From positions 103,966 through 167,965 of the forward strand of contig CAVQNC010000010.1 of the NCBI GenBank assembly GCA_963713795.1: a DNA stretch of 64,000 bases, given 5' to 3'. Shown piece by piece: positions 2,411-41,432 of this stretch. Every line of letters begins with the position of its first letter. Position 1 is the first letter of the stretch. This DNA comes from an uncultured Chloroflexia bacterium. Its GTDB lineage: Bacteria; Chloroflexota; Limnocylindria; Limnocylindrales; CSP1-4. The position numbers and the translations under genes are program-made. Below the pieces are notes generated by a model. That model was not told where the DNA came from. It did not search any database and worked only from the letters and a program-made list of their open reading frames with translations.

Positions 2411-2429
2411 AGAGCGCCTCGCACTACTG

Positions 2430-2441
2430 AAAGTTTAGTGA
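2430..2441. promoter_or_regulatory. Candidate LacI operator half-site copy 1 (AAAGTTTAGTGA) in a low-GC patch of the divergent intergenic region
   Basis: The motif AAAG(A)TTT(T)AGTGA occurs twice in the 2411-2764 intergenic region (here and at 2557-2570). The second copy is embedded in an inverted repeat ACTAAAgatTTTAGT. Confidence 0.35.
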
Positions 2442-2553
2442 ATGATATCAGCGGCTGTTTTGCCGGGCAACTCGCCCCGGGGCGCTCGAATTTGGATTGC
2501 GGGTCGTACATTCGTCGTGGTGGTGCCAGATCGCCGCCTGACTATGGTCAGGG

Positions 2554-2570
2554 CCTCCGATGGACTAAAG
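2554..2570. promoter_or_regulatory. Candidate LacI operator copy 2 (ACTAAAGATTTTAGTGA; inverted repeat ACTAAA/TTTAGT) abutting the -35 box
   Basis: Inverted repeat read directly from the sequence. It sits immediately upstream of the TTGACA -35 hexamer for the transporter operon. Confidence 0.4.
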
Positions 2571-2579
2571 ATTTTAGTG

Positions 2580-2608
2580 ACTCGTTCGATTGACACGCCA
2601 CTTTGCGT
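2580..2608 (+). promoter_or_regulatory. Sigma-70-like promoter TTGACA-17nt-TACTGT for the ABC importer operon
   Basis: Perfect -35 TTGACA (2580-2585), 17-nt spacer, -10 TACTGT (2603-2608). It lies about 155 nt upstream of the substrate-binding-protein start at 2765, which has a strong RBS GGAAGGAGGAAAGGG. Confidence 0.5.
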
Positions 2609-2764
2609 GATCTACTGTCCATCTGCCAATGTCCGGCCCCCCGTCACTGGGGCAAGCCCACGGAGTTGACGCTCTGGCTTAGCCATGCGGAGCGCACAGC
2701 GTGCCCTGAGTTGTGATCAGGCCCAACGCGCTGAGCCGTGCTCCTCATGGGAAGGAGGAAAGGG

Positions 2765-4567
2765 ATGCAAATAGGCAGATCCAGGGTTCTAGCTCTGCTC
2801 GCCGTAGTGGCCATCGTCGGCGCTGCGTGCTCAAGCACGTCGGCGACACCGACCGTAGCCCCCGGGACCCAGGCGCCTGCGACCCAGGCACCGGCCTCCT
2901 CGGCTCCGTCGCCGACGGCCGCGCCGGTCACGTCCTACCCGCGCGCACAGACCCTCTACACCCAGGGAACCGCCTGGGGAGCCCCCTCCACCTGGAACCC
3001 GTTCGACCCCAACCACGCGATGGGCGTCGTCGGCCTTCAGTACGAGACGCTGTTCCTGTACGACCCGCTAAAGGACACCTACACCAACTGGCTGGCCACG
3101 GGTGGTTCGTGGGACTCCACGAACACCACGTACACGATCAACGTTCGCCAGGGGGTCAAGTGGAGCGACGGCACGGCCCTTACGGCCTCTGACGTGGCCT
3201 TCACAATCGGCCTGTACAAGCTCCAGGCTCTGGGCTCCGACCTGTGGACCTACGTTACCGGCGTGACCGCGCCCGACGCTTCGACCGTCGTGGTCACGTT
3301 CAAGAACCCGGCCTACCAGGAGTGGCAGAACTTCCTGTACAACACGCCGATCGTGCCGCAGGCAATCTGGCAGCAGTACGACAACGAGAACATCCTCAAG
3401 TTCACCAACGACAACGGCGTCGGCTCCGGCCCCTACACGAACCTGACCCACGCCGCCGACCGCCAGGTCTGGCAGAAGAACCCGAACTGGTGGGCCACCT
3501 CCGCGCTCAGCCTCAACGTTGCGCCGACGTACATCGTCGACCTCGTCAACACCTCGAACAGCGCTGCCCTGGGCAACCTGCTCGCCGGTAACGTCGACCT
3601 GAGCAACAACTACCTGCCGGGCGTCGCCACGCTCGTCAACGGCGGGTACAGCGTCACCACCTACTACCCGAATCCGCCGTACATGCTCCCGGGCAACACC
3701 GCCGTTCTGATCCCGAACGACCAGAAGGCGCCGATGAGCGACCCGGCCTTCCGCAAGGCCCTCGCGACGGCAATTAACGTCAACGACATCGTGACCACTG
3801 ACTACGGCCAGATCGTCGCCGCGTCCGACCCGACCGGCCTTCTGCCGTACTTCAGCAAGTACATCGACAAGACGGTCACCGCCAAGCTCGGCTTCTCCTT
3901 CAGCACGGCGAAGGCCAAGGCCATGCTCGCCGCCGCCGGGTACAAGACCGACAGCAGCGGCAATGTCCTGAACAAGGACGGCTCCGCGATGAAGCTCGTC
4001 CTCGAGGTTCCGGACGGCTGGTCCGACTGGATGGAAGCTGAGAACCTGATCGCCGCCAGCGCCAAGCTCGCCGGCATCAACATCGATCCGCAGCATCCCG
4101 CTCAGGCCACGACCATCACCGACCGCAACCGGCCTGACGCCACCACGGTTCCGAAGTTCGACCTGGAGATCAACAACGACGTCCAGGTTTCGAACACGCC
4201 GTTCCAGTGGTTCGACTATGTCTTCCGCGAGCCTCTTCCGTTCGGTGCGGGCGAGACTCGAAACTACGAAGGCTACAAGAACGACGCGGCCTGGGCCCTC
4301 GTCCAGAAGCTCGACACCACGCCGGTTTCTGACACGGCCACGATGCAGTCGATCTGCTCTCAGCTGGAGACGATCCAGCTGACCGACATGCCGGTTATCC
4401 CGCTCTGGTATAACGGCGTGTGGTCGCAGGCCAACAACACCGTCTGGACCAACTGGCCGTCCAGCACGGGTTCCAACAACGAAATGGCGGTCGCCTGGGG
4501 CGGCTACTGGCAGATGGGAGCAATCTTCATGCTCACCAATCTGAAGCCCGTCCCGCCGGCCAGCTAA
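2765..4567 (+). CDS. ABC transporter substrate-binding lipoprotein, family 5 (oligopeptide/oligosaccharide Opp/Dpp type)
   Basis: ATG at 2765 preceded by GGAAGGAGG. Signal peptide plus lipobox-like AIVGAAC, then a T/P/A-rich linker. About 600 aa, typical of cluster C family 5 SBPs. Confidence 0.8.
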   Translation: MQIGRSRVLALLAVVAIVGAACSSTSATPTVAPGTQAPATQAPASSAPSPTAAPVTSYPRAQTLYTQGTAWGAPSTWNPFDPNHAMGVVGLQYETLFLYDPLKDTYTNWLATGGSWDSTNTTYTINVRQGVKWSDGTALTASDVAFTIGLYKLQALGSDLWTYVTGVTAPDASTVVVTFKNPAYQEWQNFLYNTPIVPQAIWQQYDNENILKFTNDNGVGSGPYTNLTHAADRQVWQKNPNWWATSALSLNVAPTYIVDLVNTSNSAALGNLLAGNVDLSNNYLPGVATLVNGGYSVTTYYPNPPYMLPGNTAVLIPNDQKAPMSDPAFRKALATAINVNDIVTTDYGQIVAASDPTGLLPYFSKYIDKTVTAKLGFSFSTAKAKAMLAAAGYKTDSSGNVLNKDGSAMKLVLEVPDGWSDWMEAENLIAASAKLAGINIDPQHPAQATTITDRNRPDATTVPKFDLEINNDVQVSNTPFQWFDYVFREPLPFGAGETRNYEGYKNDAAWALVQKLDTTPVSDTATMQSICSQLETIQLTDMPVIPLWYNGVWSQANNTVWTNWPSSTGSNNEMAVAWGGYWQMGAIFMLTNLKPVPPAS

Positions 4568-27886: not shown

Positions 27887-28306
27887 CCGCACAGCAAAGC
27901 AGCCGGCCGCGGAGGGGGTAGAGCGACCGGCTGCTTCGAGTCTGTGGCCGGTCGCGTCGCGAGACGCGCGGGCCGGCTACGCGAGCCATTTGATCGCGGG
28001 ATCCTGATGAACTCCTGAATCTGGCTGAGGTTAGGGTAAACCCGCGGTGGATCGCGGCCCGCAACGGCCGGCTGAAGACTGCGGGGCCGGCCCGGGAGGG
28101 CGCTCGGACACGTGGACTGGTGAGTCGCGCCCACCCCGCGGGGGCAGCCCTCCCGCTCGCTCCGGCGGGTCGACCGGGTGGGCTGTTTCGCCCGCGCGGC
28201 CGTCGATGCGGCCTCCGAGGCGAACCGGCCTCGACGGGACCGACCTGGGCGCGGGCCTTCGCGGCGACGCGTTGTCGTCTGCCGCCGGACCGGCGACACT
28301 ATCGGC

Positions 28307-29605
28307 ATGAGCGCAAGCACGAACCCGACCCCAGGGCCGCCTCGATCGGGAGAGGAACCCTCTGAGGCCGCGCCGCAGACGGTTCCTCCGACCGCCGCCG
28401 GTCCTACGCCCCCTCGCTCGCGCGGAGCGCCCAGCAACTCGCCGGCCGGGGTCGCGCCGACAGCCCCGCCGCCAGCCTCGCCCACCAGCGCGGACATCGC
28501 CCGCTATCGCGAGAACCTTCAGGGTGAGATCGACGCCATCGCCCTCTATTCATTGCTGCGGGAGAAGGAAGAGAGCCGGCCGGTCAAGGACTTCTATGCC
28601 CGCATGGTCCAGGTGGAGTCGATGCACGCGGCGGTCTGGCGGGACCGCCTCACTGCAGTGGGCGTCGACACGGCCCGGTTGAGCCCGGCCTGGCGGACCC
28701 GGGTCCTGATGTTCATCGCCCGCCACTTCGGGCCGTCCCTCGTGGTTCCGACGATCGCGGAGCACGAGGCCTCCGACGAGGCGATGTACGACGACCAGCC
28801 CGAGGCCCTGGCTAGGATGCCCGGCGACGAGCGATCCCACGCCCGGCTTTTCCGCGAACTGGCCGCCGGCCGGGGCGTTGAGGGCGGCGCCATCGCCCGC
28901 ATCGAGGGACGCCATCGCGGCAGCGGCGGGAACCAGCTCCGGGCGGCGGTTCTGGGCGCTAACGACGGCCTGGTGTCGAACCTGAGCATCACCATGGGCG
29001 TCGCCGGTGCCTCGAGCGGCGGCGGCGGTCATGCGGTTCTGATAGCCGGCCTGGCCGGCATGCTCGCCGGCGCCCTGTCGATGGCCATCGGGGAGTGGCT
29101 GTCGGTCCAGAGCGCCCGCGAGCTCTACGCCCATCAGGTCAAGGTCGAGCGTGAGGAGTTGCTCAGCGTCCCCGACGAGGAGGAAGAGGAGTTGACGCTC
29201 ATCTACCAGTCGAAGGGCCTCACGGCCGAACAGGCCCGCCTCATGGCGCAGTCGCTGATCGGCGGCGAGCTCGGGCGGGCGGTCGACACGCTCGCTCGAG
29301 AGGAACTCGGCATCGACCCCGACGAGCTCGGCGGGTCGGCCTGGGTCGCCGCGACAACCTCGTTCTGCCTCTTCGCCCTCGGGGCCGTCGTGCCGCTCTC
29401 GCCATTCTTCTTCGCCGCGGGGATGCCCGCGGTCGCGGCTTCGATCATCGTCAGCGCCGCGGCCCTGATGGTCGTCGGGGCGGCCATCACGGTTGTGACC
29501 GGATCCAGCGTGATCAAGACCGGGGGCCGGCAGGTCCTGCTCGGGCTCTTCGCGGCCGCGATCACCTTCGGCCTCGGGACCCTCGTCGGCCGGGCCGTCG
29601 GGTAA
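28307..29605 (+). CDS. mbfA: Erythrin-VIT1 fusion protein (MbfA-type membrane-bound ferritin-like iron exporter)
   Basis: N-terminal rubrerythrin-like domain with two ExxH motifs (VESMHAA, DERSHAR). C-terminal VIT1/CCC1 domain with GANDGLVSNLS and TM helices. Confidence 0.75.
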   Translation: MSASTNPTPGPPRSGEEPSEAAPQTVPPTAAGPTPPRSRGAPSNSPAGVAPTAPPPASPTSADIARYRENLQGEIDAIALYSLLREKEESRPVKDFYARMVQVESMHAAVWRDRLTAVGVDTARLSPAWRTRVLMFIARHFGPSLVVPTIAEHEASDEAMYDDQPEALARMPGDERSHARLFRELAAGRGVEGGAIARIEGRHRGSGGNQLRAAVLGANDGLVSNLSITMGVAGASSGGGGHAVLIAGLAGMLAGALSMAIGEWLSVQSARELYAHQVKVEREELLSVPDEEEEELTLIYQSKGLTAEQARLMAQSLIGGELGRAVDTLAREELGIDPDELGGSAWVAATTSFCLFALGAVVPLSPFFFAAGMPAVAASIIVSAAALMVVGAAITVVTGSSVIKTGGRQVLLGLFAAAITFGLGTLVGRAVG

Positions 29606-29659
29606 GGGCGTCGAGACTTCGGCTCGATCCGGCAGGCCCGCTGGCCGGCCAGTCAGGAC

Positions 29660-30127
29660 TCAGTCGCGGCGGGCGGACACGGCGGCATGCGGCGGGGAGG
29701 GCGAGGCCGGCTCGGGCGGGCCGGCCATGCGGTAGCCGGTGCCGTAGACACTCTCGATCAACGAGTACTCGCGGACCGGGGCGACTCGAGCGCGCAGGCT
29801 GCGGATCGTCACCTGGAGCAGGTGGATGTCGTCGCCGTACCCCGGACCCCAGACGGACAACAGCAGCTCGCGATGACCCACGACCCTGTCCGAGTGCTCG
29901 ACGAGGTAGCAGAGCAGCCGGAACTCGGTCGGCGTGAGGTGAACCTCCTCGCCCAGCACGCGGACGGATCTGCGGCCGGTGTCGATGTCCAGCGGGCCGA
30001 ACGAGAGGTGAGGCACCGGATCGACCCAAGGATCGGGACTCGGCGAGGAGAGTGAGGAGACGGAGACGGCGTAGTCGAGGGAGGAGCCGGGCCCGGGCGC
30101 CGGGCTCACGTAGCTGACCGCCCTCAT
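29660..30127 (-). CDS. Orphan OmpR/PhoB-type winged-helix DNA-binding protein (trans_reg_C domain only, no receiver)
   Basis: LTPTEFRLLCYLVEHSDRVVGHRELLLSVWG...VYGTGYRM is a complete wHTH effector domain. Start taken at the ATG following GAGAGAGGTG (M36 of the track ORF). N-terminal P/S-rich tail. Confidence 0.65.
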   Translation of the reverse strand: MRAVSYVSPAPGPGSSLDYAVSVSSLSSPSPDPWVDPVPHLSFGPLDIDTGRRSVRVLGEEVHLTPTEFRLLCYLVEHSDRVVGHRELLLSVWGPGYGDDIHLLQVTIRSLRARVAPVREYSLIESVYGTGYRMAGPPEPASPSPPHAAVSARRD

Positions 30128-30836
30128 AACACCTCTCTCGGGCGAGCGAGTCGTGCCTGCCGGCGCGGGCGCGGCATCTGCCGGCGGTACCGCAGGCACG
30201 TCCGGGCGGTTGTCGCTGCCCATAGGGATCATCTCGAGGCCGCGCCTGGCGAGCCACGAACTGATGAACTCAGCCAGGGCCCGGTCGTCGTTGGCCAGAA
30301 CGGTGCGTGCCCTGTGTCGTGGGCGGCGAAGCCGCTCGTCCGTGCGACCACCTCACCTTTCAGCCGAGGAGCCGGCTCGTTGACCTGCCTTGAATGGTGC
30401 TTGCCCCACCCCATTACGTCAACCCCGGAGTCGGCCGGCGGACCGCGCAGCCGAGACGTGGCTCTCCCTAGTCGAGCGGGAGTCACATCCGGCCGCGAGG
30501 CCGGCAGGGGCGCGCTTTCGCGGGGCGGCTGTGCCCCAAGTGTTTTGAGAATGATTTGAGATTTGCGGCGGGTTGTCGGGAATAGAGTTCGGTCACAAGC
30601 GCCCGGGCCCACGCACTGGTAGGAGAAGTGGGTCACCCCAGGAGAGGAGGTATGGTCGCGGTACCTGGTAGCGGCGTGCGCCTGGCAGGCCGCACTCGGG
30701 TACTCGCACGGGGACCGGCTTCGGCATAGCTGGGTTCGCGACGCCGAGATTTACCAAACCATCGAATTCCGAATCCCATCTGGCGGATCCGCTACCCCGG
30801 TGGATTTCGCCGATGGGGCGCCAGGGAGATTTGAGA

Positions 30837-31601
30837 ATGGTCGAGAAAATGGTTGCCGAGATCTTCGGCACGGCGATTCTGGTCCTTCTGGGCGACGGCG
30901 TTGTAGCGGGTGTCCTGCTCTCGAAGTCGAAGGCCCAGAACTCGGGCTGGATCGTCATAACCATGGCATGGGCATTCGCCGTCTTCATGGGCGTGTGCGT
31001 GGCCGGACCGCTCAGCGGCGCCCACCTTAACCCGGCCGTGACGATCGGCCTTGCCACCTACGGGTCGCTCCAGTCGGGCGCCGGCATCACCTGGGACCAG
31101 GTCCCGCCGTACATTGCCGGTGAGATGATCGGTGCCATGATCGGCGCGATCCTTGTGGTCATCCACTACTGGGATCACTTCAAGGCCACCGAGGACAAGG
31201 GCCTCAAGCTGGCGGTCTTCAGCACGGCCCCGAACATCCGCAACCTGCCGCTCAACCTGGTCTCGGAGATCATCGGCACCTTCGTGCTCGTCTTCGTGAT
31301 CCTCTGCTTCGGCCAGCCCGGTTCCAAGGCCCCGGCGACCATGGGCGCGCTGCCCGTCGCCCTGCTGGTCCTGGTCATCGGCCTCTCGCTCGGCGGTACG
31401 ACCGGATATGCGATCAACCCCGCCCGCGACCTCGGCCCGCGCATCATCCACGCCATCCTGCCAATTCCTGGCAAGGGCGGTTCGGACTGGGAGTACTCGT
31501 GGGTTCCCGTCGTCGGTCCGCTGATCGGCGGCGCAATCGCGGCCATCGTCTACTACGCGGCCTTCACCCAGTTCATCGTCCTCAAGATTCCGGTTTCGTA
31601 A
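30837..31601 (+). CDS. glpF: Glycerol uptake facilitator (MIP/aquaporin family)
   Basis: Two NPA boxes (HLNPAVTIG and AINPARDLGPR); six TM helices; ATG 8 nt after AGGGAG. Confidence 0.9.
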   Translation: MVEKMVAEIFGTAILVLLGDGVVAGVLLSKSKAQNSGWIVITMAWAFAVFMGVCVAGPLSGAHLNPAVTIGLATYGSLQSGAGITWDQVPPYIAGEMIGAMIGAILVVIHYWDHFKATEDKGLKLAVFSTAPNIRNLPLNLVSEIIGTFVLVFVILCFGQPGSKAPATMGALPVALLVLVIGLSLGGTTGYAINPARDLGPRIIHAILPIPGKGGSDWEYSWVPVVGPLIGGAIAAIVYYAAFTQFIVLKIPVS

Positions 31602-31716
31602 GCGGTCGTTTCAAGTTGAGCCGCCGGTTCGAGGCAACTCGGGCCGGCGGCTCGCCCTGCCGAACCGACCTGAACCGACCTGAACTGTCGGATCCAGGAG
31701 TCGCGGAGGAAGTCGA

Positions 31717-32715
31717 ATGAAGAAGCTCATCAACGCGCCGGACCGCGTCGTGGACGAGGCGCTGGCCGGCATGGCAGCGGCTCACCCGGATCTGATCCGG
31801 GTCGAGGAGCCAAACATCATCGTCCGAAAGGATGCCCCCAAGCGCGGCAAGGTCGGCATCATCTCCGGCGGCGGGTCGGGCCACGAACCCATGCACGGCG
31901 GCTTTGTCGGCATGGGCATGCTCGATGCCGCCTGCCCGGGCGCTGTGTTCACGTCACCGGTTCCGGATCAGATGCAGGCCGCCACCAGGGCGGTCAACGG
32001 CGGCGCCGGTGTGCTGCACATCGTCAAGAACTACACGGGCGATATCATGAACTTCGACCTCGCGGCTCAACTGACCGAGGCCGAAGGGATCCCGGTGAAG
32101 GCGGTCGTCATCGCCGACGACGTAGCCGTAAAGGACTCGCTCTACACCGCTGGCCGGCGCGGTGTCGGCGGGACGGTGCTCGCCGAGAAGATCGTCGGCG
32201 GCGCGGCCGAGGCCGGCGCCGATCTGGACAAGGTGACGGCCTTGTGCCAGAGGGTCCAGGACAATGTCCGTTCCATGGGCATGGCCCTGACCAGTTGCAC
32301 CGTCCCGGCGGCGGGCAAGCCCACCTTCGAGCTCGCCGACGACGAGATGGAGATCGGCATCGGCATTCACGGCGAGCCTGGCCGGACCAGGATGAAGCTC
32401 GCCCCAGCGGACGACATCGTCGAAATGCTGATGGTGCCGATCCTCGAAGACCTTCCGTTCAAGTCGGGTGACAAGGTGCTCGCCTTCGTCAACGGCATGG
32501 GCGGAACGCCGCTTATCGAGTTGTACGTCGTGTACAACGCGGTCAACAAGATCCTCAAGGGCCGTGGGATCACGATCGCACGGAACCTCGTCGGGAGTTA
32601 CATCACGTCCCTGGAGATGGCCGGCTGCTCTATCAGCTTGCTCAGGCTCGACGACGAGATGACCCGCTTCTGGGATGCCCCGGTCCATACGCCGGGTCTT
32701 CGCTGGGGCGTGTGA
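31717..32715 (+). CDS. dhaK: Dihydroxyacetone kinase subunit DhaK (copy 1)
   Basis: GGGSGHEP motif and DhaK fold; ATG after GGAGGAAG. Confidence 0.9.
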
Positions 32716-33365
32716 CGTCGATGGACCAAACCGGCCGGTTGTCGTTCGATGATGTCCGTGGCTGGATCCGGCGCTTCGCGGCGCAGATCGTCGCCAACAA
32801 GAAGTACCTGACCGAGCTCGACTCGGCCATCGGCGACGCCGACCACGGCATCAACATGGATCGCGGCTTCCAGGCTGCGATTCCGAAGCTAGATGCCCTT
32901 ACGGGCGAGGATCCCGGCGCAGCCTGCAAGCTCGTCGGGTCGACGCTCATCTCCACGGTCGGCGGAGCCGGCGGGCCCCTCTACGGCTCGCTCTTCCTCC
33001 AGTTCGGCATCGCCTTGTCCGGCCACGACACGATCAGCCTGAACGAATGGCTGACCGGATTCGACCTGGGCATCGCTGCGATCCAGCGGCTTGGAAAGGC
33101 CGAGGCCGGCGACAAAACGATGCTCGATGCCCTCATGCCCGCCCGCGACGCCCTCAAACAGGCTCTCGCCGATGGAAAGAGTCCCAGAGAGGCTCTCCTC
33201 GGCGCGGCCTCGGCGGCCGAGGCGGGGATGATAGGCACCATCCCGATCGTGGCCCGCAGGGGCCGGGCGAGCTACCTGGGAGAGCGCAGCGCGGGCCATC
33301 AGGACCCGGGCGCGACCTCCTCGTACATGCTCGTCAAAGCCGCAGCGGACGAATGGGCGGCCTAG
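32712..33365 (+). CDS. dhaL: Dihydroxyacetone kinase subunit DhaL (copy 1)
   Basis: DGDHGINM ADP-binding motif; 4-nt overlap with dhaK. Confidence 0.85.
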
Positions 33366-33375
33366 ATCCGCGGTA

Positions 33376-34905
33376 GTGGATTCCGGTTTATCGAAAGAGG
33401 TGACTAGATTGGCTCAGTATGTAGGCGCCCTGGACCAGGGGACTACAAGCACCCGCTTCATGATCTTCGATCACTCCGGCGGCGTCGTCGGGATCGATCA
33501 GAAGGAGCATGAGCAGATCTACCCGAAGCCGGGTTGGGTCGAGCACGATCCGCTGGAGATCTGGACGCGCAGCGTCGAGGTCATCCGCGGCGCCCTGGCC
33601 AAGGCCGGCATCAAGGCCTCCGACCTGGCGGCGGTCGGCATCACCAACCAGCGCGAGACCACGGTGGTCTGGGATCGCAAGACGGGCAAGCCCGTCTACA
33701 ACGCGATCGTCTGGCAGGACACCCGGACCGACGTGATCATCAACGAGTTCGCCAAGGACGGCGGCCAGGATCGGCTCCGCGCCAAGGTCGGCCTGCCTCT
33801 GGCGACCTACTTCTCCGGCCCGAAGATCAAGTGGATCCTCGACAACGTCGCGGGTGCCCGTGCCAAGGCCGACGCCGGAGACCTCCTCTTCGGCAACATC
33901 GACACCTGGTGCATCTGGAACCTGACCGGCGGCGTCAGCGGCGGCGTGCACGTCACGGACGTGAGCAACGCCAGCCGCACGATGCTGATGAACCTCGAGA
34001 CCCTGGACTGGGATCCCGAGATTCTCAAGCTCATGGGCATCCCGCGGTCCATGCTGCCGGCCATCAAGGCCTCCAGCGAGGTCTACGGCAAGGGCGTCGG
34101 CGACCTCGCCGGCGTTCCGGTGGCCGGTGACCTGGGTGACCAGCAGGCGGCCCTCTTCGGCCAGACGTGCTTCTCCGCCGGCGAGGCGAAGAACACCTAC
34201 GGCACGGGCTGCTTCATGCTCCTGAACACGGGCACCAAGGCGGTCCCGTCCAAGAGCGGCCTGCTGACCACGCTCGGATACAAGATCGGCGACCAGCCCG
34301 CGGTCTACGCCCTTGAAGGCTCGATCGCGATCACCGGCGCCCTGGTCCAGTGGCTGCGCGACAACCTTGGCATGATCAAGACCTCGCCCGAGATCGAAGA
34401 GCTTGCCAAGACGGTCGACGACAATGGCGGCGTGTACTTCGTGCCGGCCTTCTCCGGCCTGTTCGCGCCGTACTGGAAGAGCGATGCGCGCGGCGTCATC
34501 GCCGGATTGACTCGCTACGTCAACAAGGGCCACATCGCCCGAGCAGTGCTCGAGGCGACGGCCTGGCAGACCCGCGAAGTGCTCGACGCGATGAACTCCG
34601 ACTCCGGCGTTCCGCTAACCGCACTCAAGGTCGACGGCGGCATGGTCTTCAACGACCTGCTCATGCAGTTCCAGGCCGACGTCCTGGGCGTGCCGGTCAT
34701 CCGGCCGAAGGTCGCAGAGACGACCGCCCTGGGCGCCGCCTACGCTGCCGGCCTCGCGGTCGGCTTCTGGAAGGCCGTCGAGGACCTGCGGGCGAACTGG
34801 CAGAAGGATCACGAGTGGAAGCCCAAGATGGATGCCACCACTCGTGAGAAGGACCTCAAGCTCTGGAAGAAGGCCGTGACCCGGACCTTCGACTGGGTCG
34901 AGTAG
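33376..34905 (+). CDS. glpK: Glycerol kinase
   Basis: [17 protein letters not shown]-terminal motif, FGGY-family length. The true start may be the TTG at about 33409 (LAQYVGAL). Confidence 0.9.
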
Positions 34906-34917
34906 GGTCTCCACCAA

Positions 34918-34946
34918 TCCGGCGGCCGGCTTGCCCGGCCGCCGGA
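34918..34946 (+). terminator. Perfect 12-bp stem hairpin (TCCGGCGGCCGG-cttgc-CCGGCCGCCGGA) between glpK and the glpA-like gene
   Basis: Read directly from the sequence. No U-tract; may act as a terminator/attenuator or RNA processing site. Confidence 0.4.
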
Positions 34947-34979
34947 TAACAATGTTCGAACATCGCATCTGGCAGAACA

Positions 34980-36167
34980 ATGGATAGACAGTCAGGCGCA
35001 CCAAGGGTCGTCATCATCGGCGGCGGTGGCACGGGGGGAGCCCTCGCCCACGATCTGACTCTGCGCGGGGTCCGCGTGACCCTCGTCGAGCGCGGCGAAA
35101 TCACTTCGGGGACGACGGGCCGGCACCACGGCCTGCTCCACTGCGGCGCCCGGTACGCGGTCAAGGACCGCGAGTCCGCCGTTGAGTGCATTGAAGAGAA
35201 CACCATCCTGCGGAGGATCGCGCCGGGCTCGTTCGAGCTCAACGACGGGCTCTTCGTCGCGGTCACCGATGCCGAGGCGGATTACGAGAAGGTCTTCTTC
35301 GAGTCGTGCCAGGCCGCCGAGATTCCCGTCAGGAGAGTGGACCGGGCCGGGGCGCTGCGCCTCGAGCCCAGGCTGAACCCGGAGCTCCGGTGCGCCGTCC
35401 AGGTCCCCGACGGCACCATGGACGCGATGCGCATGCCGCTCCGGTTCTTCGCCACCGCCAAGCGCAACGGCGCCGATATCCGGCCGTTCAGCGAGGTCGT
35501 CGGGCTGACCATGACGGACGCGGCGTCGCCGCGCGCGGTCACCGGGGTGGCCGTGAAGGACCTCACGTCCGGCCGCACGTACGAGATCGGCGCGGACCTG
35601 GTGGTCAACGCGGGCGGGCCGTGGGCGGGCAAGGTGGCCGGAATGGCCGGTGTGGACGTGCCGATCCAGCCCTCGCCGGGGATCCTGGTCGCGGTCCGCG
35701 GCCGCTACTGCAACATGGTCGTCAACCGGCTCCACGCCTCCGGCGACGGCGACATCGTGGTGCCCCAGCGCGAGCTCTCAGTGATCGGAACGAGCTCGTG
35801 GGTCACCGACGATCCGGACCACCTGACCGTCCCATCCGACCACGTGGAGATGATGTTCCGCGAGGGATCGATGATGATCCCGTCGATCCGCACGGCCGAG
35901 ATTCGGGCGACCTGGTCCGCCGCCCGGCCGCTCATCGGCGAGCGCGGCGCCTCCACCGGCCGCGAGCTTTCGCGCACTTTCAAATGCTTCGACCACGCGG
36001 CCGACGACGGCGTCGAGGGCTTCGTGACCATCTCGGGAGGCAAGGCGACGACGCTGCGGGCGATGGCGGAGGCGACGGCCAACGTCGTGTGCCGCAAGCT
36101 CGGCGTCGACCGGCCGTGCATGACCCGCGAGGTCGTGCTGCTGCCCCACACGGAGTACTACGCATGA
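34980..36167 (+). CDS. glpA: Glycerol-3-phosphate dehydrogenase flavoprotein, GlpA-type but truncated (about 395 aa, lacks the C-terminal BFD-like domain)
   Basis: N-terminus VVIIGGGGTGGALAHDLTLRGVRVTLVERGEITSGTTGRHHGLLHCGARYAVKDRESAVECIEEN is collinear with the E. coli GlpA N-terminus as recalled. Confidence 0.8.
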   Translation: MDRQSGAPRVVIIGGGGTGGALAHDLTLRGVRVTLVERGEITSGTTGRHHGLLHCGARYAVKDRESAVECIEENTILRRIAPGSFELNDGLFVAVTDAEADYEKVFFESCQAAEIPVRRVDRAGALRLEPRLNPELRCAVQVPDGTMDAMRMPLRFFATAKRNGADIRPFSEVVGLTMTDAASPRAVTGVAVKDLTSGRTYEIGADLVVNAGGPWAGKVAGMAGVDVPIQPSPGILVAVRGRYCNMVVNRLHASGDGDIVVPQRELSVIGTSSWVTDDPDHLTVPSDHVEMMFREGSMMIPSIRTAEIRATWSAARPLIGERGASTGRELSRTFKCFDHAADDGVEGFVTISGGKATTLRAMAEATANVVCRKLGVDRPCMTREVVLLPHTEYYA

Positions 36168-36955
36168 GCGCCCAGGAGTCTCCGGTGACCGAAGGGGCTC
36201 AGGCCCCCGTCGATACCCACGCCACCTCGGGAACCGGCCGCCACGTCCGCTTCCGCGTCTCCCGTTTCAAGCAGGGCGACCAGCAGCCGCACCTCCAGGA
36301 CTACGACGTGGAGATTGCGCCGGCGACCACGGTCCTGGACGCCCTGACGGCGATCCGCCGCGACCAGGACCCGACGCTGCTCCTGCGCCATTCCTGCTTC
36401 CACGCGTCCTGCGGCACCTGCGGCATGCGCGTCAACGACAAGGAAGAGCTGGCCTGCGTCACGGCCGTCAGCGACCTCGACTGCGACACGGTCAAGGTGG
36501 AGCCGATCGCGAACCAGCGACTCGTTTCGGACCTGGTCACGGACATGGTCGACTTCTACGATCGGTTCCGGGCGATCGGCCGGCCGCTCATCCGCCAGAG
36601 TGAGGTCTACCCGGACTCGGAGGTCGCGCCGGGAGTCGAGGAGCACCGCCGCTACGAGAGCTGCATCGAATGCGGGCTCTGCCTGTCGGCCTGCCCGATC
36701 GTAGCCAGCGACGGCCGCTACCTCGGCCCGGCGGCGCTCGCGGCGGCCCAGCGTACCGTCGCCGAGCCGCGCGGTGGCGACAGCTTCTCCGTCCTGCGCC
36801 TGACCGACGACGCCCAGGCGGCCTGGCGCTGCCACCTGTCGTTCGAGTGCTCGGAGGCCTGCCCGTCCAACGTGGATCCGGCCGGCGCCATCATGTTCAT
36901 CCGCCGCAAGCTGGCAGGCCAGCGCGTCAACTCGATCTTCGGGAGGCGGTCATGA
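36164..36955 (+). CDS. Succinate dehydrogenase/fumarate reductase-type iron-sulfur subunit (SdhB-like: 2Fe-2S plus two 4Fe-4S-type motifs)
   Basis: ATGA overlap with the glpA stop. CFHASCGTCGMRVN...C plant-ferredoxin motif; CIECGLCLSACP; CHLSFECSEACP. The 5' 286 codons of track ORF 35306..36955 are a frame artefact. Confidence 0.75.
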   Translation: MSAQESPVTEGAQAPVDTHATSGTGRHVRFRVSRFKQGDQQPHLQDYDVEIAPATTVLDALTAIRRDQDPTLLLRHSCFHASCGTCGMRVNDKEELACVTAVSDLDCDTVKVEPIANQRLVSDLVTDMVDFYDRFRAIGRPLIRQSEVYPDSEVAPGVEEHRRYESCIECGLCLSACPIVASDGRYLGPAALAAAQRTVAEPRGGDSFSVLRLTDDAQAAWRCHLSFECSEACPSNVDPAGAIMFIRRKLAGQRVNSIFGRRS

Positions 36956-37353
36956 CCGTAAGGGAAGATAGGGCAAGCCCCCGGCGCCGCGGCGTCTACG
37001 GCTGGGTCGACCCGCGGGGTCGCCGGCTGGGTCACTGGGCCTTCATCCTCAACCGCCTGACCGGTCTGGGCATCCTTCTGTACCTGGGCCTGCATCTGGT
37101 CGTGCTGTCGATGCTGGCCACCGGCCCGAATGCCTGGGACAACTTCGTCTCCCTCGCCCTGACGCCCGTCTTCCTGTCCCTGGACGTGATCCTGATCTTC
37201 GGCCTGCTGCTCCACGGGCTCAACGGCATCCGCGTGACGCTTGTCGGCTTCGGCCTGGTGGTCGATCGCCAGAAGGCCCTCTTCGTGTCGCTGATGGTGA
37301 TAGGAGCCATCATCCTGGTCGTGGCGTCGCTCCACATTTTCGAGGTGGGGTAA
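36952..37353 (+). CDS. SdhC-like membrane anchor/cytochrome b subunit
   Basis: ATGA overlap with the FeS gene; 133 aa, three TM helices with His residues (HWAF, LHLV, LLHGLNG). Confidence 0.65.
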   Translation: MTVREDRASPRRRGVYGWVDPRGRRLGHWAFILNRLTGLGILLYLGLHLVVLSMLATGPNAWDNFVSLALTPVFLSLDVILIFGLLLHGLNGIRVTLVGFGLVVDRQKALFVSLMVIGAIILVVASLHIFEVG

Positions 37354-37356
37354 GCG

Positions 37357-37791
37357 ATGTCTGAGCCAATCTCCGGCCACTCCAAAGCGACCGATCAGCC
37401 GGTCGATCACGATGTCGAGCGCTCGACCTGGACGCCTTCGAACGAGTCCGGGAAGCCGGCCTGGGGCTGGATCCTGCAGGCGGTCACCGGCGTGCTGGTG
37501 CTGTTCCTTCTGACCTTCCACATGATCGCCAACCATTTCATGGTGACCAAGGGCCTGCGCGACGCCGCCTCCGTGGCCCAGTGGTTCTCGAACCCGCTCG
37601 TCGTCGTCCTGGAGGTAACCTTTCTGGTGATGGTGACGTGGCACGGGCTGCTCGGCCTGCGCGCGATCATCTTCGACTTCGGCTTCAGCCCGAAGACGGA
37701 GCGCCGGATTACCTGGACCCTGACAGTGGTTGGCACAGTGGCGGTCGTCTATGGAATCTGGCTTACGTCGGTGATCGTCTCCCGGGGTTGA
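37357..37791 (+). CDS. SdhD-like hydrophobic membrane anchor subunit
   Basis: 144 aa, three TM helices (FHMIANHFMV, WHGLLGLRAI); follows the SdhC-like gene after 3 nt. Confidence 0.6.
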   Translation: MSEPISGHSKATDQPVDHDVERSTWTPSNESGKPAWGWILQAVTGVLVLFLLTFHMIANHFMVTKGLRDAASVAQWFSNPLVVVLEVTFLVMVTWHGLLGLRAIIFDFGFSPKTERRITWTLTVVGTVAVVYGIWLTSVIVSRG

Positions 37792-37812
37792 TCCTGCGAC
37801 TGGAGGCGTGGC

Positions 37813-40425
37813 GTGGCGGATGCGACCGGGCCGCTGGTAGGGATAGTCGTCGTCTCACACTCGGCGCGGATCGCCGAGGGTGTCGTCGAGCTGGCCCGGC
37901 AGATGGCCGGCCCGGACGTGCCTCTCGTTGCCGCCGGAGGCATGGCCGACGGCGCCATCGGAACCGATGCGGTTCTCATAGCGGAGGCGATCGCCCGGGC
38001 CGACGTTGGTGGCGGCGTGCTCGTTCTGGCCGACCTCGGCAGCGCGGTCCTGAGCACGAAACTGGCCCTGGACATGGCCGATCCGGAACTGGCCGCCCGG
38101 ACTCGCCTGAGCAACGGGCCGATCGTCGAAGGCGCGGTCGTGGCCGCGGTCCGAGCCAGGGGCGGCGCGACGGTCGACGAGGTTCTGCGCGAGGCGGAGG
38201 CCGCTGCCTCGGTGGTCAAGGACTCTGGTGACGAGGCTGCCGACGTCTTCGGTGCGGCCGGCCCCGGGCCGAGCCTGGCGGCCGGAGCGGCCGGGACGAG
38301 CGGCGGCGTGGCCGGTGCGGCCGGCGGGCCCAGCACGTTCACCCTCGAGGTCTCGAACCCGTCCGGCCTGCATGCCCGGCCGGCGGCGGAGTTCGTCGCC
38401 ACCGCCGCACGGTTCCGATCCGCGATCCGGCTCGAGAACCTGACTCGGGGCACGTCACCGGCCGACGCCAGGAGCCCGACGGCGATCATGTCGAGCGGAG
38501 TGGCCCAGGGCCACGCGATCCGCGTGTCGGCTGAGGGAGAGGACCAGGACGCGGCGCTTGCGGCGCTCCTGTCGCTCGCCGCTGGCGGCTTCGGCGAGGG
38601 CAAGGCGGCCGCCACCCGACCCGGGCCGGCCGCGGCTCGGCCGGCGGCCGAATTGCCGCTCCTGGCGCCCCGCCCGCGCCTGGCCGGGGCCATCGCCGGG
38701 ACGCCGGGCGCAGCCGGCGTGGCCGTCGGGCCGGTGTGGGTCTACGCCTCGCGGCCGCCGTCCGATGCCGCCGCTCACGGGGCCGGGGCGACTTACGATC
38801 CCGGCGCGGCAGTCCGTTCGGCGGCCGCCGAAGCCACCGCCCAGCTCAACGCGCTGGCGGCACGGGTGCGGCGGCATGGTCGAGACGAGGACGCCGGCAT
38901 CTTCCGAGCCCAGGCCATGATTGCCTCCGACCCGCAGCTCCTGGACGATGCCGTGGCGCGGGCGGCCGCGGGCGAGGACCCGGGCAGGGCCGTGGAGTCG
39001 GCCGCGGCGATGGCCGCGGAACGCATGGAGGCCCTGCCGGACGCGCTCCTGGCGGCCCGTGGGGCCGACTTCCGCGACGTGGGGGCCAGGATCGCCCGGA
39101 TCGTTCGAGGTGAGTCGCTGACCCTGCCGGCCGTGCCTTCCATCGCGGTCGCCGAGGACCTGCCGCCCTCCGTCGCGGAGGAGCTGCCGGAAGATCTCCT
39201 GCTCGGAGTGGCGATCCAGGGCGGCTCGGCCACGGCGCACGTCGTAATCCTGTCCCGCGGCCGGGGGATCCCGGCCGTAGTGGCGGTGCCCGGACTCCTC
39301 GAAGCGGCGGCGAAGGCGTCGGCCATCGCCATCGACGGCGAGTCGGGCGAAGTGGTCCTCGATCCGGACGCGGCCGCGCTGGCCGAGCTGGCGGCTCGCG
39401 CCGAGGCCTTGGCCGAGCGCCGCCGCGCCGCGGCCGCGCTTCGCGGCGACAAGGGAGCCACTGCCGACGGGCAGCCCGTTGCGCTGCTGGCGAACATCGG
39501 CGGCCCTGATGATGCCGGCCGCGCCATCGAAGCCGGAGCCGAGGGCGTGGGCCTGTTTCGAACCGAGTTCCTGTTCATGAAGCGCCGGACGGCTCCGACC
39601 GAGGACGACCAGGTCGAGCCGTATCGGCGCGTCTTCGAAGCCTTCGGGCGCGATCGCCCGGTCGTCGTCCGCCTGGCGGACATCGGCGGCGACAAGGACC
39701 TGCCTTACCTGGGCTTGCCGCACGAGGAGAACCCGTTCCTCGGAGTCCGGGCGATCCGCCTGGCCGAGGGTTCGCGCGAGCTGCTCGCCGCCCAGCTGCG
39801 GGCGATCTGGCGGGCCGCCGGGCTGGCCGGCGTGGTGCCGCACGTCATGGCGCCGATGGTCTCCACGCTGGAGGACGCCCGTCTCCTGGTCGAGCTGCGC
39901 GACGAAGCCCGGGCGGTGGTGGCGGCCGGGGGCGCGCCCCTGCCCGAGCGCATGGTCACCGGAATCATGGTCGAGGTCCCGTCCGCGGCGATCCTGGCTC
40001 CGGAGCTCGCGCGGCTGGTCGATTTCTTCTCGATCGGCACGAACGACCTGACCCAGTACACGCTGGCGGCGGATCGCTCGAACCCGGCTCTGGCCCACTT
40101 CCAGGATGCCCTCCATCCCGCTGTTCTACGCCTCATCGCCGGCGTGGTCGCCGGGGCCGACGAGGCCGGCATCCCGGTCGCGGTCTGCGGGGAACTGGCC
40201 GGCGATCCGATCGGGGCCCTCGTGCTGGTCGGCCTGGGTGTCGACGAACTCTCCGCGGACGCCGGCTCGCTCGATGACGTGCGGGCGGCGCTCGCGGGCG
40301 TGACGCGCGCTCAGCTGGCCGATCTTGCGCAGGACGCCCTCAAGGCGGCCGATGCCGCGGCGGTCAGGGCCATGGCCCGCGAGCTCCTGCGGCCGCTCGC
40401 AGCGGGGCCCGGGCGCACGCCGTGA
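37813..40425 (+). CDS. dhaM: Multiphosphoryl transfer protein: DhaM-type EIIA(Man)-like domain, HPr domain and full Enzyme I (PEP-protein phosphotransferase)
   Basis: N-terminus VGIVVVSHSARIAEGVVELARQM matches the DhaM N-terminus. HPr GLHARPAAEFV. EI phospho-His region GGSATAHVVILSRGRGIPAVV and PEP-utilizing signature FFSIGTNDLTQYTLA. 870 aa. Confidence 0.85.
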   Translation: MADATGPLVGIVVVSHSARIAEGVVELARQMAGPDVPLVAAGGMADGAIGTDAVLIAEAIARADVGGGVLVLADLGSAVLSTKLALDMADPELAARTRLSNGPIVEGAVVAAVRARGGATVDEVLREAEAAASVVKDSGDEAADVFGAAGPGPSLAAGAAGTSGGVAGAAGGPSTFTLEVSNPSGLHARPAAEFVATAARFRSAIRLENLTRGTSPADARSPTAIMSSGVAQGHAIRVSAEGEDQDAALAALLSLAAGGFGEGKAAATRPGPAAARPAAELPLLAPRPRLAGAIAGTPGAAGVAVGPVWVYASRPPSDAAAHGAGATYDPGAAVRSAAAEATAQLNALAARVRRHGRDEDAGIFRAQAMIASDPQLLDDAVARAAAGEDPGRAVESAAAMAAERMEALPDALLAARGADFRDVGARIARIVRGESLTLPAVPSIAVAEDLPPSVAEELPEDLLLGVAIQGGSATAHVVILSRGRGIPAVVAVPGLLEAAAKASAIAIDGESGEVVLDPDAAALAELAARAEALAERRRAAAALRGDKGATADGQPVALLANIGGPDDAGRAIEAGAEGVGLFRTEFLFMKRRTAPTEDDQVEPYRRVFEAFGRDRPVVVRLADIGGDKDLPYLGLPHEENPFLGVRAIRLAEGSRELLAAQLRAIWRAAGLAGVVPHVMAPMVSTLEDARLLVELRDEARAVVAAGGAPLPERMVTGIMVEVPSAAILAPELARLVDFFSIGTNDLTQYTLAADRSNPALAHFQDALHPAVLRLIAGVVAGADEAGIPVAVCGELAGDPIGALVLVGLGVDELSADAGSLDDVRAALAGVTRAQLADLAQDALKAADAAAVRAMARELLRPLAAGPGRTP

Positions 40426-41432
40426 GAATGGCGAGCCTGGGCAGGTCCGGCCTCCCCGTCAGCGAGATCGGGCTGGGCCTGGCCGCGATCGGCCGGCCGG
40501 GCTATATCAACCTCGGACGCGACCGCGACCTCGGCGCCGATCGCAGCGTCGAGGTCATGCGGAGCAGAGCCCACCACGTGCTCGACGCCGCCTACGCCGG
40601 CGGCGTGCGTTACTTCGACGCCGCGCGCTCGTACGGCCTGGCCGAGGACTTCCTGGCCTCGTGGCTGGACGCACGCGCCCTCGGGCCCGCCGACGTGACC
40701 GTGGGCTCCAAGTGGGGCTACCGCTACACGGCCGACTGGCAGGTCGGGGCGAGCGTCAACGAGATCAAGGACCACTCCGTCGCGAACCTGCGGCGCCAGG
40801 CGGCCGAGAGCCGCGGGCTGCTGGGAGACCGGCTGCGCCTCTACCAGATCCACTCCGCCACTCTCGAGAGCGGCGTGCTCGACGACGCCGAGGTGCTGGC
40901 CGAGCTGAGCTCGCTGGCCGGGGCCGGCCTGGCGGTCGGGCTGTCGGTGAGCGGTCCGCGGCAGTCGGACGTGATCCGTCGCGCGCTCGAGGTCCGGGTC
41001 GACGGCCGCCCGCTCTTTGCCTCCGTCCAGGCGACCTGGAACCTGCTCGAGCCGTCGGCCGGACCCGCGCTGGCCGAGGCCAGGGAGGCGGGCTGGGGAG
41101 TGATCGTCAAGGAAGCGCTGGCGAACGGCCGCCTGGCCACGCCGGCGGCGCCGGCGGCCCTCGCGGCGCCGGGTTCGCCGGGCCGGCCCGCTCCGCTCGA
41201 GAACGTGGCCGGGCGCCTCCGCTGCGCCGCCGACGCCGTGTCCATCGCCGCCGCGCTGGCTCAGCCGTGGTCCGACGTAGTCCTGTCGGGAGCGGTCAGC
41301 CCTGAACAGCTCACCAGCAACCTTGCCGCGGTCGACGTGCGGATCTCGCCCGACGACCTGGCCGAACTCGGGTCCATGGCCGAGCCGCCGGCATCGTACT
41401 GGGCGACGCGAGCCTCGCTGGCCTGGGCCTGA
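40422..41432 (+). CDS. Aldo/keto reductase
   Basis: 336 aa; AKR (alpha/beta)8 barrel features; ATGA overlap with the dhaM fusion gene. Confidence 0.7.
   Translation: MRMASLGRSGLPVSEIGLGLAAIGRPGYINLGRDRDLGADRSVEVMRSRAHHVLDAAYAGGVRYFDAARSYGLAEDFLASWLDARALGPADVTVGSKWGYRYTADWQVGASVNEIKDHSVANLRRQAAESRGLLGDRLRLYQIHSATLESGVLDDAEVLAELSSLAGAGLAVGLSVSGPRQSDVIRRALEVRVDGRPLFASVQATWNLLEPSAGPALAEAREAGWGVIVKEALANGRLATPAAPAALAAPGSPGRPAPLENVAGRLRCAADAVSIAAALAQPWSDVVLSGAVSPEQLTSNLAAVDVRISPDDLAELGSMAEPPASYWATRASLAWA

Follow-up and report, generated by a model that had tools for sequence, protein, structure and literature searches.

The DNA described here is a stretch of 64,000 nucleotides (64 kb; hereafter the window, always meaning the whole stretch) from an uncultured soil member of Candidatus Limnocylindria (Chloroflexota); it is high in GC (0.69), and the metagenome-assembled genomes closest to it bear the label Chloroflexia or Candidatus Limnocylindrales/Limnocylindria. 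Within it, a gene for an OmpR-type winged helix-turn-helix (wHTH) protein, which is also contained in ENA and Logan assemblies, is divergent from glpF, and between the two lies the divergent regulatory region of a 10-gene operon for glycerol/dihydroxyacetone (DHA) catabolism (Table 1). By Pfam, the order of the operon is glpF, dhaK, dhaL, glpK, a glycerol-3-phosphate (G3P) dehydrogenase-like flavoprotein, an iron-sulfur subunit, two Sdh_cyt membrane subunits, a fused EIIA-HPr-EI (DhaM-like) protein and an aldo/keto reductase; a Pfam scan found no other transcription-factor genes within it. We describe the wHTH regulator, the operator that we predict it to bind, and an element in the untranslated glpF leader that resembles a Shine–Dalgarno (SD) sequence.

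Table 1. Features of the wHTH–glpF region and its surroundings, in window coordinates.
Feature	Position	Strand	Basis or remark
VIT1 gene	28178-29605	+	Pfam; convergent with the wHTH gene
wHTH regulator gene (Trans_reg_C, OmpR-type)	29660..30343 (3' end at 29660)	-	Pfam; family-length model, 227 codons plus stop; ACG (30343-30341) at the start position
OmpR/PhoB-type winged-helix DNA-binding domain	29714..30016	-	PF00486; presumed recognition helix ...DDIHLLQVTIRSLR...
Receiver-domain vestige (beta1-alpha1-beta2; residues 11-45)	30209..30313	-	hhalign, family profile
Putative promoter of the wHTH gene	30394..30422	-	TTGACG (30422-30417), 17-nt spacer, CACCAT (30399-30394)
Predicted operator	30543..30561	+	Two 7-bp direct repeats TTTGAGA (30544-30550, 30555-30561), 11 bp centre to centre
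Putative -10 box TAGAGT, glp operon promoter	30583..30588	+	Conservation, 29 loci
Conserved SD-like element GAGAGGAGG	30642..30650	+	Untranslated leader, ~190 nt upstream of the glpF start
25-codon upstream open reading frame of the original prediction	30652..30729	+	Judged incidental
glpF ribosome-binding site GGGAGA, spacer and ATG	30824..30839	+	Contains the second TTTGAGAATG copy
glpF start ATG	30837	+	Sequence
Glycerol/DHA operon	30837..41432	+	Pfam matches; gene order same in L004 and L117

We compared this region with about 30 related Limnocylindria loci (designated L followed by a number), most of which were fetched via the regulator and six via GlpF alone. In every recovered locus the glpF orthologue (57–95% identity) adjoins a gene of this wHTH/response-regulator family, in one of two arrangements. 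In the first, glpF is divergent from a PAS-HisKA-HATPase kinase that is followed by an intact regulator with both receiver (REC) and wHTH domains (L013-16, L019, L029, L030, L042, L050, L066, L071 and L078); in the second, glpF is divergent from a receiver-less wHTH gene that is followed by a convergent VIT1 gene (the window, L004, L005, L007-L012, L085, L089 and L112-115). All six loci retrieved by GlpF conform to one or the other, that is, L116, L117, L120 and L121 have a kinase and an intact regulator and L118 and L119 have the receiver-less form with VIT1. The GlpF proteins of L116 and L117 are 90% identical to that of the window, yet the intact two-component system is kept there. The kinase is carried by the loci of groups C and D; we found no orthologous kinase in the window or in the loci of groups A and B, where VIT1 lies downstream, and the single kinase match is a paralogue (30–37% identical) ~5 kb away. 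Because sister loci, including two with a closely similar GlpF, keep the intact system, we conclude that a glp-linked response regulator gave rise to the regulator in the window by loss of its kinase and erosion of its receiver.

The original prediction, made by reading the sequence, had described the wHTH protein as a 155-residue, essentially free-standing effector domain with neither a receiver nor a BTAD domain. Its domain assignment holds: PF00486 (Trans_reg_C) matches over the full profile (positions 1–77; 66.8 bits against a gathering score of 26.2; E 1.8e-18), and Pfam finds neither a Response_reg (PF00072) nor a BTAD domain, nor any domain besides Trans_reg_C. The protein has no hydrophobic stretch that could form a membrane segment, and the chain ends ~20 residues past the wHTH, so it is of neither the SARP (Streptomyces antibiotic regulatory protein)/BTAD type nor the ToxR/CadC type. 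In the AlphaFold2 model, the wHTH (residues ~110–210) has pLDDT values above 90, with strands at 112–134, helices at 138–149, 157–164 and 173–187, and strands at 196–206; this fits the OmpR-type fold, that is, an N-terminal four-stranded sheet, three helices and a C-terminal hairpin (the wing). The top Foldseek matches are the DNA-binding domains of KdpE, PhoB and VicR (target-normalised TM-scores 0.8–0.9), with KdpE-DNA complexes ranking first. Outside the wHTH the model is ordered solely as a helix at residues 20–33, with disorder elsewhere.

The description as a free-standing domain, in contrast, has to be revised, since the protein is a decayed response regulator that retains a vestige of its receiver. 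A homologue search gave 267 matches at E <= 0.001; among the best 120 of these, the first 70 carry Trans_reg_C alone and are mostly 200–290 residues long, and from the 71st onward they are canonical REC+wHTH regulators annotated as KdpE-like. The receiver-less homologues share an N-terminal motif (xxERLxxxxRxxRVVVxEDxDALxxLIxxWLARHGLxTVPI, in which W30, L31 and P40 are invariant) and a ‘WVD’ motif ahead of the wHTH. When the profile of this 45-residue N-terminal motif was aligned by hhalign with the receivers of the glp-linked canonical regulators, in which Pfam does find a receiver domain, it matched template columns 13–47 (beta1-alpha1-beta2) with a probability of 97% and an E-value of 1.2e-10; the family (A1) profile also aligns end to end with full-length PrrA, MtrA, RegX3 and KdpE. 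Pfam Response_reg gave no match to the isolated 45-residue N-terminal fragments, which are too short to score, so the identity of the vestige was settled by profile-profile comparison. The phospho-acceptor region is absent from the window protein, in which just beta1-alpha1-beta2 of the receiver is retained. The regulator is therefore an OmpR/PhoB-family winged-helix protein whose ancestor served as the response regulator in a two-component system linked to glp; the lineage of the window has lost the kinase, and the receiver has decayed to its beta1-alpha1-beta2 vestige, followed by a disordered linker.

The gene model bears on how much of this vestige is made. The first in-frame ATG codons are at 30232 and 30127, the latter being the start of the annotated 155-residue model; this model is probably truncated. 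The homologues begin 72 codons upstream of ATG 30127, and the ~40-residue N-terminal motif that they share is present in frame in the window as well, upstream of both ATGs; exactly where the homologues have ATG or GTG, the window has ACG. Counted from this family start position, the gap to glpF is 493 nt instead of the 700 nt first proposed. The same ACG occupies the start position in L085 (3614-3616) and L115 (930-932), whose protein is 76% identical to that of the window, and three independent assemblies from the population of the window itself carry it too. Codons 2–37 (from the ACG to the first ATG) differ between the two ACG lineages at codon positions 1/2/3 by 2/2/7 nucleotides, with a ratio of nonsynonymous to synonymous differences per site (pN/pS) of 0.21 (pS 0.24); for the DNA-binding domain pN/pS is 0.09 (pS 0.28, similar to that of codons 2–37). 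Thus, these 36 codons, all ahead of the first in-frame ATG, evolve as coding sequence. Because they do, and because an SD sequence (GAGGTG) lies 5 nt upstream of the ACG, the comparison argues that the N-terminal vestige is probably still translated, most simply from the ACG; initiation at a conserved non-AUG codon behind a good SD would keep the level of the regulator low. Further upstream, TTGAC and CAC.AT are invariant in the seven-locus alignment A3 and the sequence around them is variable; we take these hexamers to be the putative promoter of the wHTH gene.

An ACG at the family start position, with no canonical start before codon 38, could also mean that the gene is becoming a pseudogene, its ATG start lost to ACG and any product N-terminally truncated, that is, translated from ATG 30232 or 30127. 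The kinase and the receiver had already been lost, and the 155-residue model was the one chosen by the NCBI annotators, both of which are in keeping with such decay. However, strong purifying selection acts on the DNA-binding domain when the two ACG lineages are compared, and the codons from the ACG to the first ATG look coding by both pN/pS and third-position bias. Both the promoter and the SD that precede the ACG are conserved, and the ACG is common to two lineages, so it is old and not a recent lesion. We regard incipient loss of the gene as distinctly unlikely.

The region facing glpF contains the direct repeats that had been proposed as the regulator-binding platform. The repeat block GTTTTGAGAATGATTTGAGATTTG is present at 30542-30565, 1 nt from where it had been placed, and TTTGAGA-N4-TTTGAGA (spacer ATGA; 30544-30561) occurs once in the window. 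Across the 27 leaders and the GlpF-found loci (29 non-identical sequences), the consensus aTTTyGAGAATGATTTGAGRTT is located exactly 21 nt upstream of TAGAGT (or TAGATT or TACAGT) without a single indel. When the entire intergenic region of seven loci was aligned, TTTTGAGAATGATTTGAGATTTG and TAGAGT stood out as almost invariant against highly diverged flanks; over the 29 non-identical loci, the relative entropy is 1.65 bits per position for the 19-nt site and 2.15 for the -10 box, compared with 0.12 for the upstream flank of the operator, 0.20 downstream of the -10 box and 0.55 for the spacer that separates the operator from the -10 box. A degenerate operator pattern run over the 1.16 Mb of fetched loci found one copy per matching locus, at the operator position, and two other matches; additional copies that might indicate autoregulation or a regulon were absent from the window, including the interval between the wHTH gene and the operator, and essentially absent from the fetched loci. 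The significance of the site thus comes from its conservation among loci, not from its statistics within the window. The repeats are predicted to be a conserved operator with the grammar of OmpR/PhoB sites, that is, two 7-bp direct repeats with a 4-bp spacer and an 11-bp period. The platform idea is borne out to this extent: the repeats are deeply conserved and rigidly placed, and a gene of the regulator family adjoins glpF in every locus, including the six found via GlpF.

The same operator accompanies the canonical kinase-regulator pairs (L013-16, L019, L029-30, L042, L050, L066, L071, L078, L116, L120 and L121), and its sequence tracks the regulator: the recognition helix HLLQVT(I/M/V)R pairs with GAG-core half-sites in receiver-less and intact regulators alike, and the group D regulators, with the helix QLLRVTMR, pair with TTTCGACGATGTCTTGAGA. 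No -35-like (TTGACA-like) hexamer is found 16–18 nt upstream of the -10 box of glpF, and a consensus scan finds no full sigma-70 promoter there. Because the glpF promoter lacks a -35 box, in contrast to the promoter of the wHTH gene with its TTGACG-17-CACCAT, we favor activation as the role of the regulator. We place the transcription start near 30595. In our proposal, the regulator would bind head-to-tail as a dimer to the two TTTGAGA repeats (about -52 to -34) and, abutting the -35 region, would activate a promoter that has a good -10 box but no -35 box; as it has no phospho-acceptor, its activity probably does not depend on phosphorylation and would be either constitutive or controlled through some partner.

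The same site overlaps the DNA that RNA polymerase would contact at -35, and a receiver-less DNA-binding domain could occupy it constitutively, so the wHTH protein might instead bind the repeats as a repressor or roadblock; because the assignment of the site to this protein is sequence-based, the repeats could also belong to a different, unlinked regulator, with the wHTH gene a bystander. Rigid, indel-free spacing to the -10 box together with the absence of a -35 box is, however, typical of activator-dependent promoters, and OmpR/PhoB proteins typically use direct repeats with an 11-bp period, unlike the glycerol repressors of the DeoR and IclR families, which bind in another manner. The adjacency of the family gene in every locus (the GlpF-only finds included), the lack of any other regulator gene nearby and the covariation of recognition helix and half-site likewise point to the wHTH protein. 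Repression or a bystander gene is therefore unlikely, and activation by the receiver-decayed regulator remains our preferred interpretation.

Two further observations concern the surroundings of the operator. A terminator-like GC hairpin (GGGGCGGCTGTGCCCC; 30522-30537, plus strand) lies directly upstream of it; we rejected this as a terminator because it is upstream of the promoter, its T-run is the first half-site, and it is not conserved in other loci. In L014 (3780-3830) and other group C loci, which have the intact two-component system, only ~25–30 nt separate the kinase start codon from the operator; so short a distance forces the promoter of the kinase-regulator pair to overlap the promoter region of glpF, and the pair could thus regulate itself.

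A third binding site might be supposed at the glpF start, where the original prediction had noted a recurrence of the decamer TTTGAGAATG of the repeat block. The decamer does occur exactly twice in the window, and because it has no exact match in 100 shuffles the recurrence is statistically unusual; the copies are at 30544-30553 and 30830-30839, so the second is not at 30828-30837 as had been reported. It coincides with the spacer between the glpF SD (GGGAGA) and the ATG. In near relatives this spacer reads TCTGAGAATG, TGTGAGAATG or TCAAGGAATG (TCTGAGA, TGTGAGA or TCAAGGA), and in groups C and D it is unrelated; just TGAGAATG survives in the nearest relatives, and the decamer is absent in the more distant groups. 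We therefore rejected it as a binding site, since it is not conserved beyond near relatives, and regard it as a coincidence that near relatives share through recent common descent.

The glpF leader is ~240 nt long in the window and 193–268 nt long across the loci. The original prediction had pointed to a perfect SD sequence within it, and this element proves to be universally conserved, though without an open reading frame (ORF) behind it: each of the 27 leaders and of the six GlpF-found loci has GARAGGAGG or a close variant of it 44–79 nt after the -10 box. It is located 134–208 nt upstream of glpF in 26 of the 27 leaders, the remaining one (L089) having GTAAGGAGG, and it is the sole leader element that is conserved in all clades. 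The copy in the window is its only GARAGGAGG, and one such 9-mer is unsurprising by chance (1.87 expected).

The ATG at 30652 does open a 25-codon upstream ORF (uORF), as had been noted, but this ends 107 nt before the glpF ATG and not 108. If it were translated as a leader peptide, glpF could be controlled by attenuation or translational coupling; an ATG follows the perfect SD-like sequence not only in the window but in L085/L115, L004, L007, L011 and L078, and the SD-like element itself is universal. However, in 10 of the 27 leaders the interval from -2 to +16 nt relative to the element contains no start codon (ATG, GTG or TTG); the ORFs that do follow it range from 4 to over 60 codons, some reading through into glpF, and encode unrelated peptides; and the indels in the leader alignment are not multiples of three. 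The GC content at third codon positions of the uORF is 0.60, as in noncoding sequence, compared with 0.85–0.90 in neighboring genes. Its GGAGG-to-ATG gap is 1 nt, whereas at a true start in the clade the same 9-mer is followed by 4–5 nt and then the start codon (e.g., in L023, where GAAAGGAGG is the true SD for dhaM, with a TTG or ATG start 4–5 nt downstream). No terminator-like site or hairpin occurs on the plus strand from 30652 to 30837, that is, from the uORF to glpF. Because neither start codon, frame, length nor peptide is conserved and the third positions look noncoding, we rejected the uORF as a coding feature and consider a regulatory leader peptide highly improbable; the 25-codon frame would be a by-product of an ATG beside the SD-like element.

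The conserved length of the leader would also suit an undescribed, structured cis-regulatory RNA that binds a metabolite or protein, with GARAGGAGG as a structural or switching strand. A few compensatory changes are seen in some stems within clades (e.g., CCCRTC.GGCG...CGCC.GATGGG just upstream of the glpF SD), and one related genome, L077, encodes GlpP-type antiterminators beside an operator-like motif. Against this, Rfam 15 gave no match at E <= 10 on either strand of 29000-32000, the folding z-score of the whole leader is -1.62, and the mean z of the 5' leader segments is +0.17 over 26 leaders; with RNAalifold, the covariation terms are penalties (positive) in all three clades, which have no architecture in common. 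An RNA structure or Rfam family in the leader is thus not supported, and a structured regulatory RNA appears very unlikely. GlpP was rejected as a partner of the leader because, among the fetched loci, GlpP-type proteins occur solely in L077, with no glpP homologue in the window or any other locus. In L077, two tandem GlpP-type genes (PF04309, G3P antiterminator; 2402-3566) are downstream of the operator-like motif TTTCGAGGATCATTTGAGG (4091) and beside a frameshifted kinase and a truncated regulator, with a C-terminal remnant of glpK nearby.

A conserved SD-like sequence without a conserved ORF has a precedent in the STAB-SD element of the Bacillus thuringiensis cry3A mRNA: a perfect SD located in a long 5' untranslated region, far from the start codon and without initiation there, where binding of the 30S subunit blocks 5'-3' decay by RNase J (PMC4113751). 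By analogy, the most likely role of the glpF leader element would be to dock 30S subunits without productive translation, as a STAB-SD-like stabilizer or a standby site; this is the weakest step in our proposal. The Chloroflexota are a different phylum, and the function that we suggest for the element here is drawn solely from its conservation. The cry3A element is reportedly the same 9-mer, GAAAGGAGG, which a literature search did not confirm.

Together, these features suggest a receiver-decayed OmpR/PhoB-type activator of glpF-dhaKL-glpK, plus a STAB-SD-like element in the leader of the operon; we consider this combination probable, although some way from certain, with its regulator-operator part well supported by comparative sequence evidence. 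Several points weigh against it. Operator binding, 30S docking, the position of the transcription start and whether the regulator activates or represses are all inferred. A receiver-less OmpR domain has no obvious signal input, so induction by glycerol is unexplained. The related loci are metagenome-assembled genomes of one class, so that 29 sequences are not 29 independent observations, and the covariation of helix and operator comes down to what is essentially a single event in evolution. In all 29 loci 21 nt separate the site from the -10 box, in place of the 10 nt of the pho box, which excludes a mechanism of pure -35 replacement. Initiation at ACG is deduced from a small sample of 11 nucleotide differences, and a GTG at codon 16 in L085 is a possible alternative start. 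Finally, STAB-SD function was shown in Bacillus and depends on RNase J.

Comparison with known regulators places the system among the OmpR/PhoB proteins while setting it apart from each of them. With PhoB and the pho box of Escherichia coli it shares the DNA-binding fold, two 7-bp repeats with a 4-bp gap and an 11-bp period, and a -10 box without a -35 box; however, the pho box is about 10 nt from its -10 box, whereas the site in the window is placed a further helical turn upstream, so that it is no simple substitute for the -35 box. The sequence of the half-sites differs too, and the window protein has neither a functional receiver nor a kinase partner. KdpE, OmpR, PrrA, MtrA and RegX3 are its closest solved relatives by sequence profile, with full-length alignment, and OmpR sites are promoter-proximal, as is the predicted site here; in the window, however, the receiver is reduced to beta1-alpha1-beta2, with no phospho-acceptor Asp and no alpha4-beta5-alpha5 dimerization face. 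Atypical, phosphorylation-independent members of the OmpR family include GlnR of actinobacteria, HP1043/HsrA and ChxR, and GlnR structures are found among the profile and Foldseek matches of the window protein. These regulators likewise use an OmpR-type DNA-binding domain without a cognate kinase or phosphorylation, but they keep a complete, folded, dimerizing pseudo-receiver, in place of which the window protein has mostly a low-complexity, disordered linker. The known regulators of glycerol/DHA genes, that is, GlpR (DeoR family), GylR (IclR family), the antiterminator GlpP, DhaR and DhaS/DhaQ, act on the same targets (glpF, glpK, glpD-like genes and dhaKLM), but the regulator in the window is of a different protein family and has a different type of site.

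A text search of the literature found no OmpR-type two-component system or regulator dedicated to glpF, and a metagenome scan for further loci yielded just one additional close locus. What is new here is an OmpR-family regulator with an eroded receiver that, judging from gene adjacency and operator conservation, would control a glycerol/DHA operon in Chloroflexota. A more inclusive account is possible but tentative: an undescribed OmpR-type two-component system for this operon in Limnocylindria may have been turned, in one branch, into a kinase-independent activator by erosion of the receiver, with the alpha1 vestige (the kinase-docking helix in intact regulators) kept for a new partner or function, a conserved ACG start, and a STAB-SD-like 30S docking element in the same operon. 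If this is true, the leader element would be the first conserved example of its kind outside the Firmicutes. With this locus, glycerol catabolism in an abundant, uncultured class of soil and freshwater Chloroflexota gains a defined regulator-operator pair that can be tested, and the related loci form a natural series in the dismantling of a two-component system, from an intact kinase and regulator, via a long degenerate receiver, to a 35-residue vestige, with the operator the same throughout. Also of note are a start codon, ACG, that is apparently maintained by selection and a perfectly conserved SD-like element located 190 nt upstream of its gene. Current understanding is not overturned; known principles are extended to a new lineage and a new target operon.

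Other genes at these loci have features of their own. The VIT1/CCC1-family iron transporter encoded next to the regulator has an N-terminal ferritin- or rubrerythrin-like domain; its pairing with the wHTH gene is kept in most receiver-less loci (VIT1 was undetected in L008, L010 and L012) and occurs in none of the kinase-regulator loci. Within the operon (plus strand), the G3P-dehydrogenase-like flavoprotein, the SdhB-like iron-sulfur subunit and the two Sdh_cyt membrane subunits (34980-37791) form a gene set that suggests a succinate-dehydrogenase-style membrane complex for G3P oxidation. The next gene (37813-40425, plus strand) encodes an 870-residue DhaM-like phosphotransfer protein in which EIIA-man, HPr and Enzyme I are fused, so that it brings its own Enzyme I; unlike this fusion, the EIIA-man domain in L004 and L117 is encoded by a separate gene (~139 residues), followed in L004 by a separate HPr gene.

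In L120 (3728-4435) and L121 (3542-4183), a Dak2 (DhaL-like) paralogue is encoded directly upstream of the glp-linked kinase and regulator, on the same strand; by analogy with DhaL-DhaR of E. coli, it could be a co-sensor. Finally, the same bacterial class has a paralogous kinase-regulator pair (about 34 loci in L017-L084; ~2950-3250, minus strand; e.g., L023 3040-3120) that faces a dhaM-...-MIP operon in divergent orientation; the dhaM promoter of this system has two to three TCTTG direct repeats with 11-bp spacing, ending in TTGACA, and this period fits the general picture of regulator and operator proposed for glpF.

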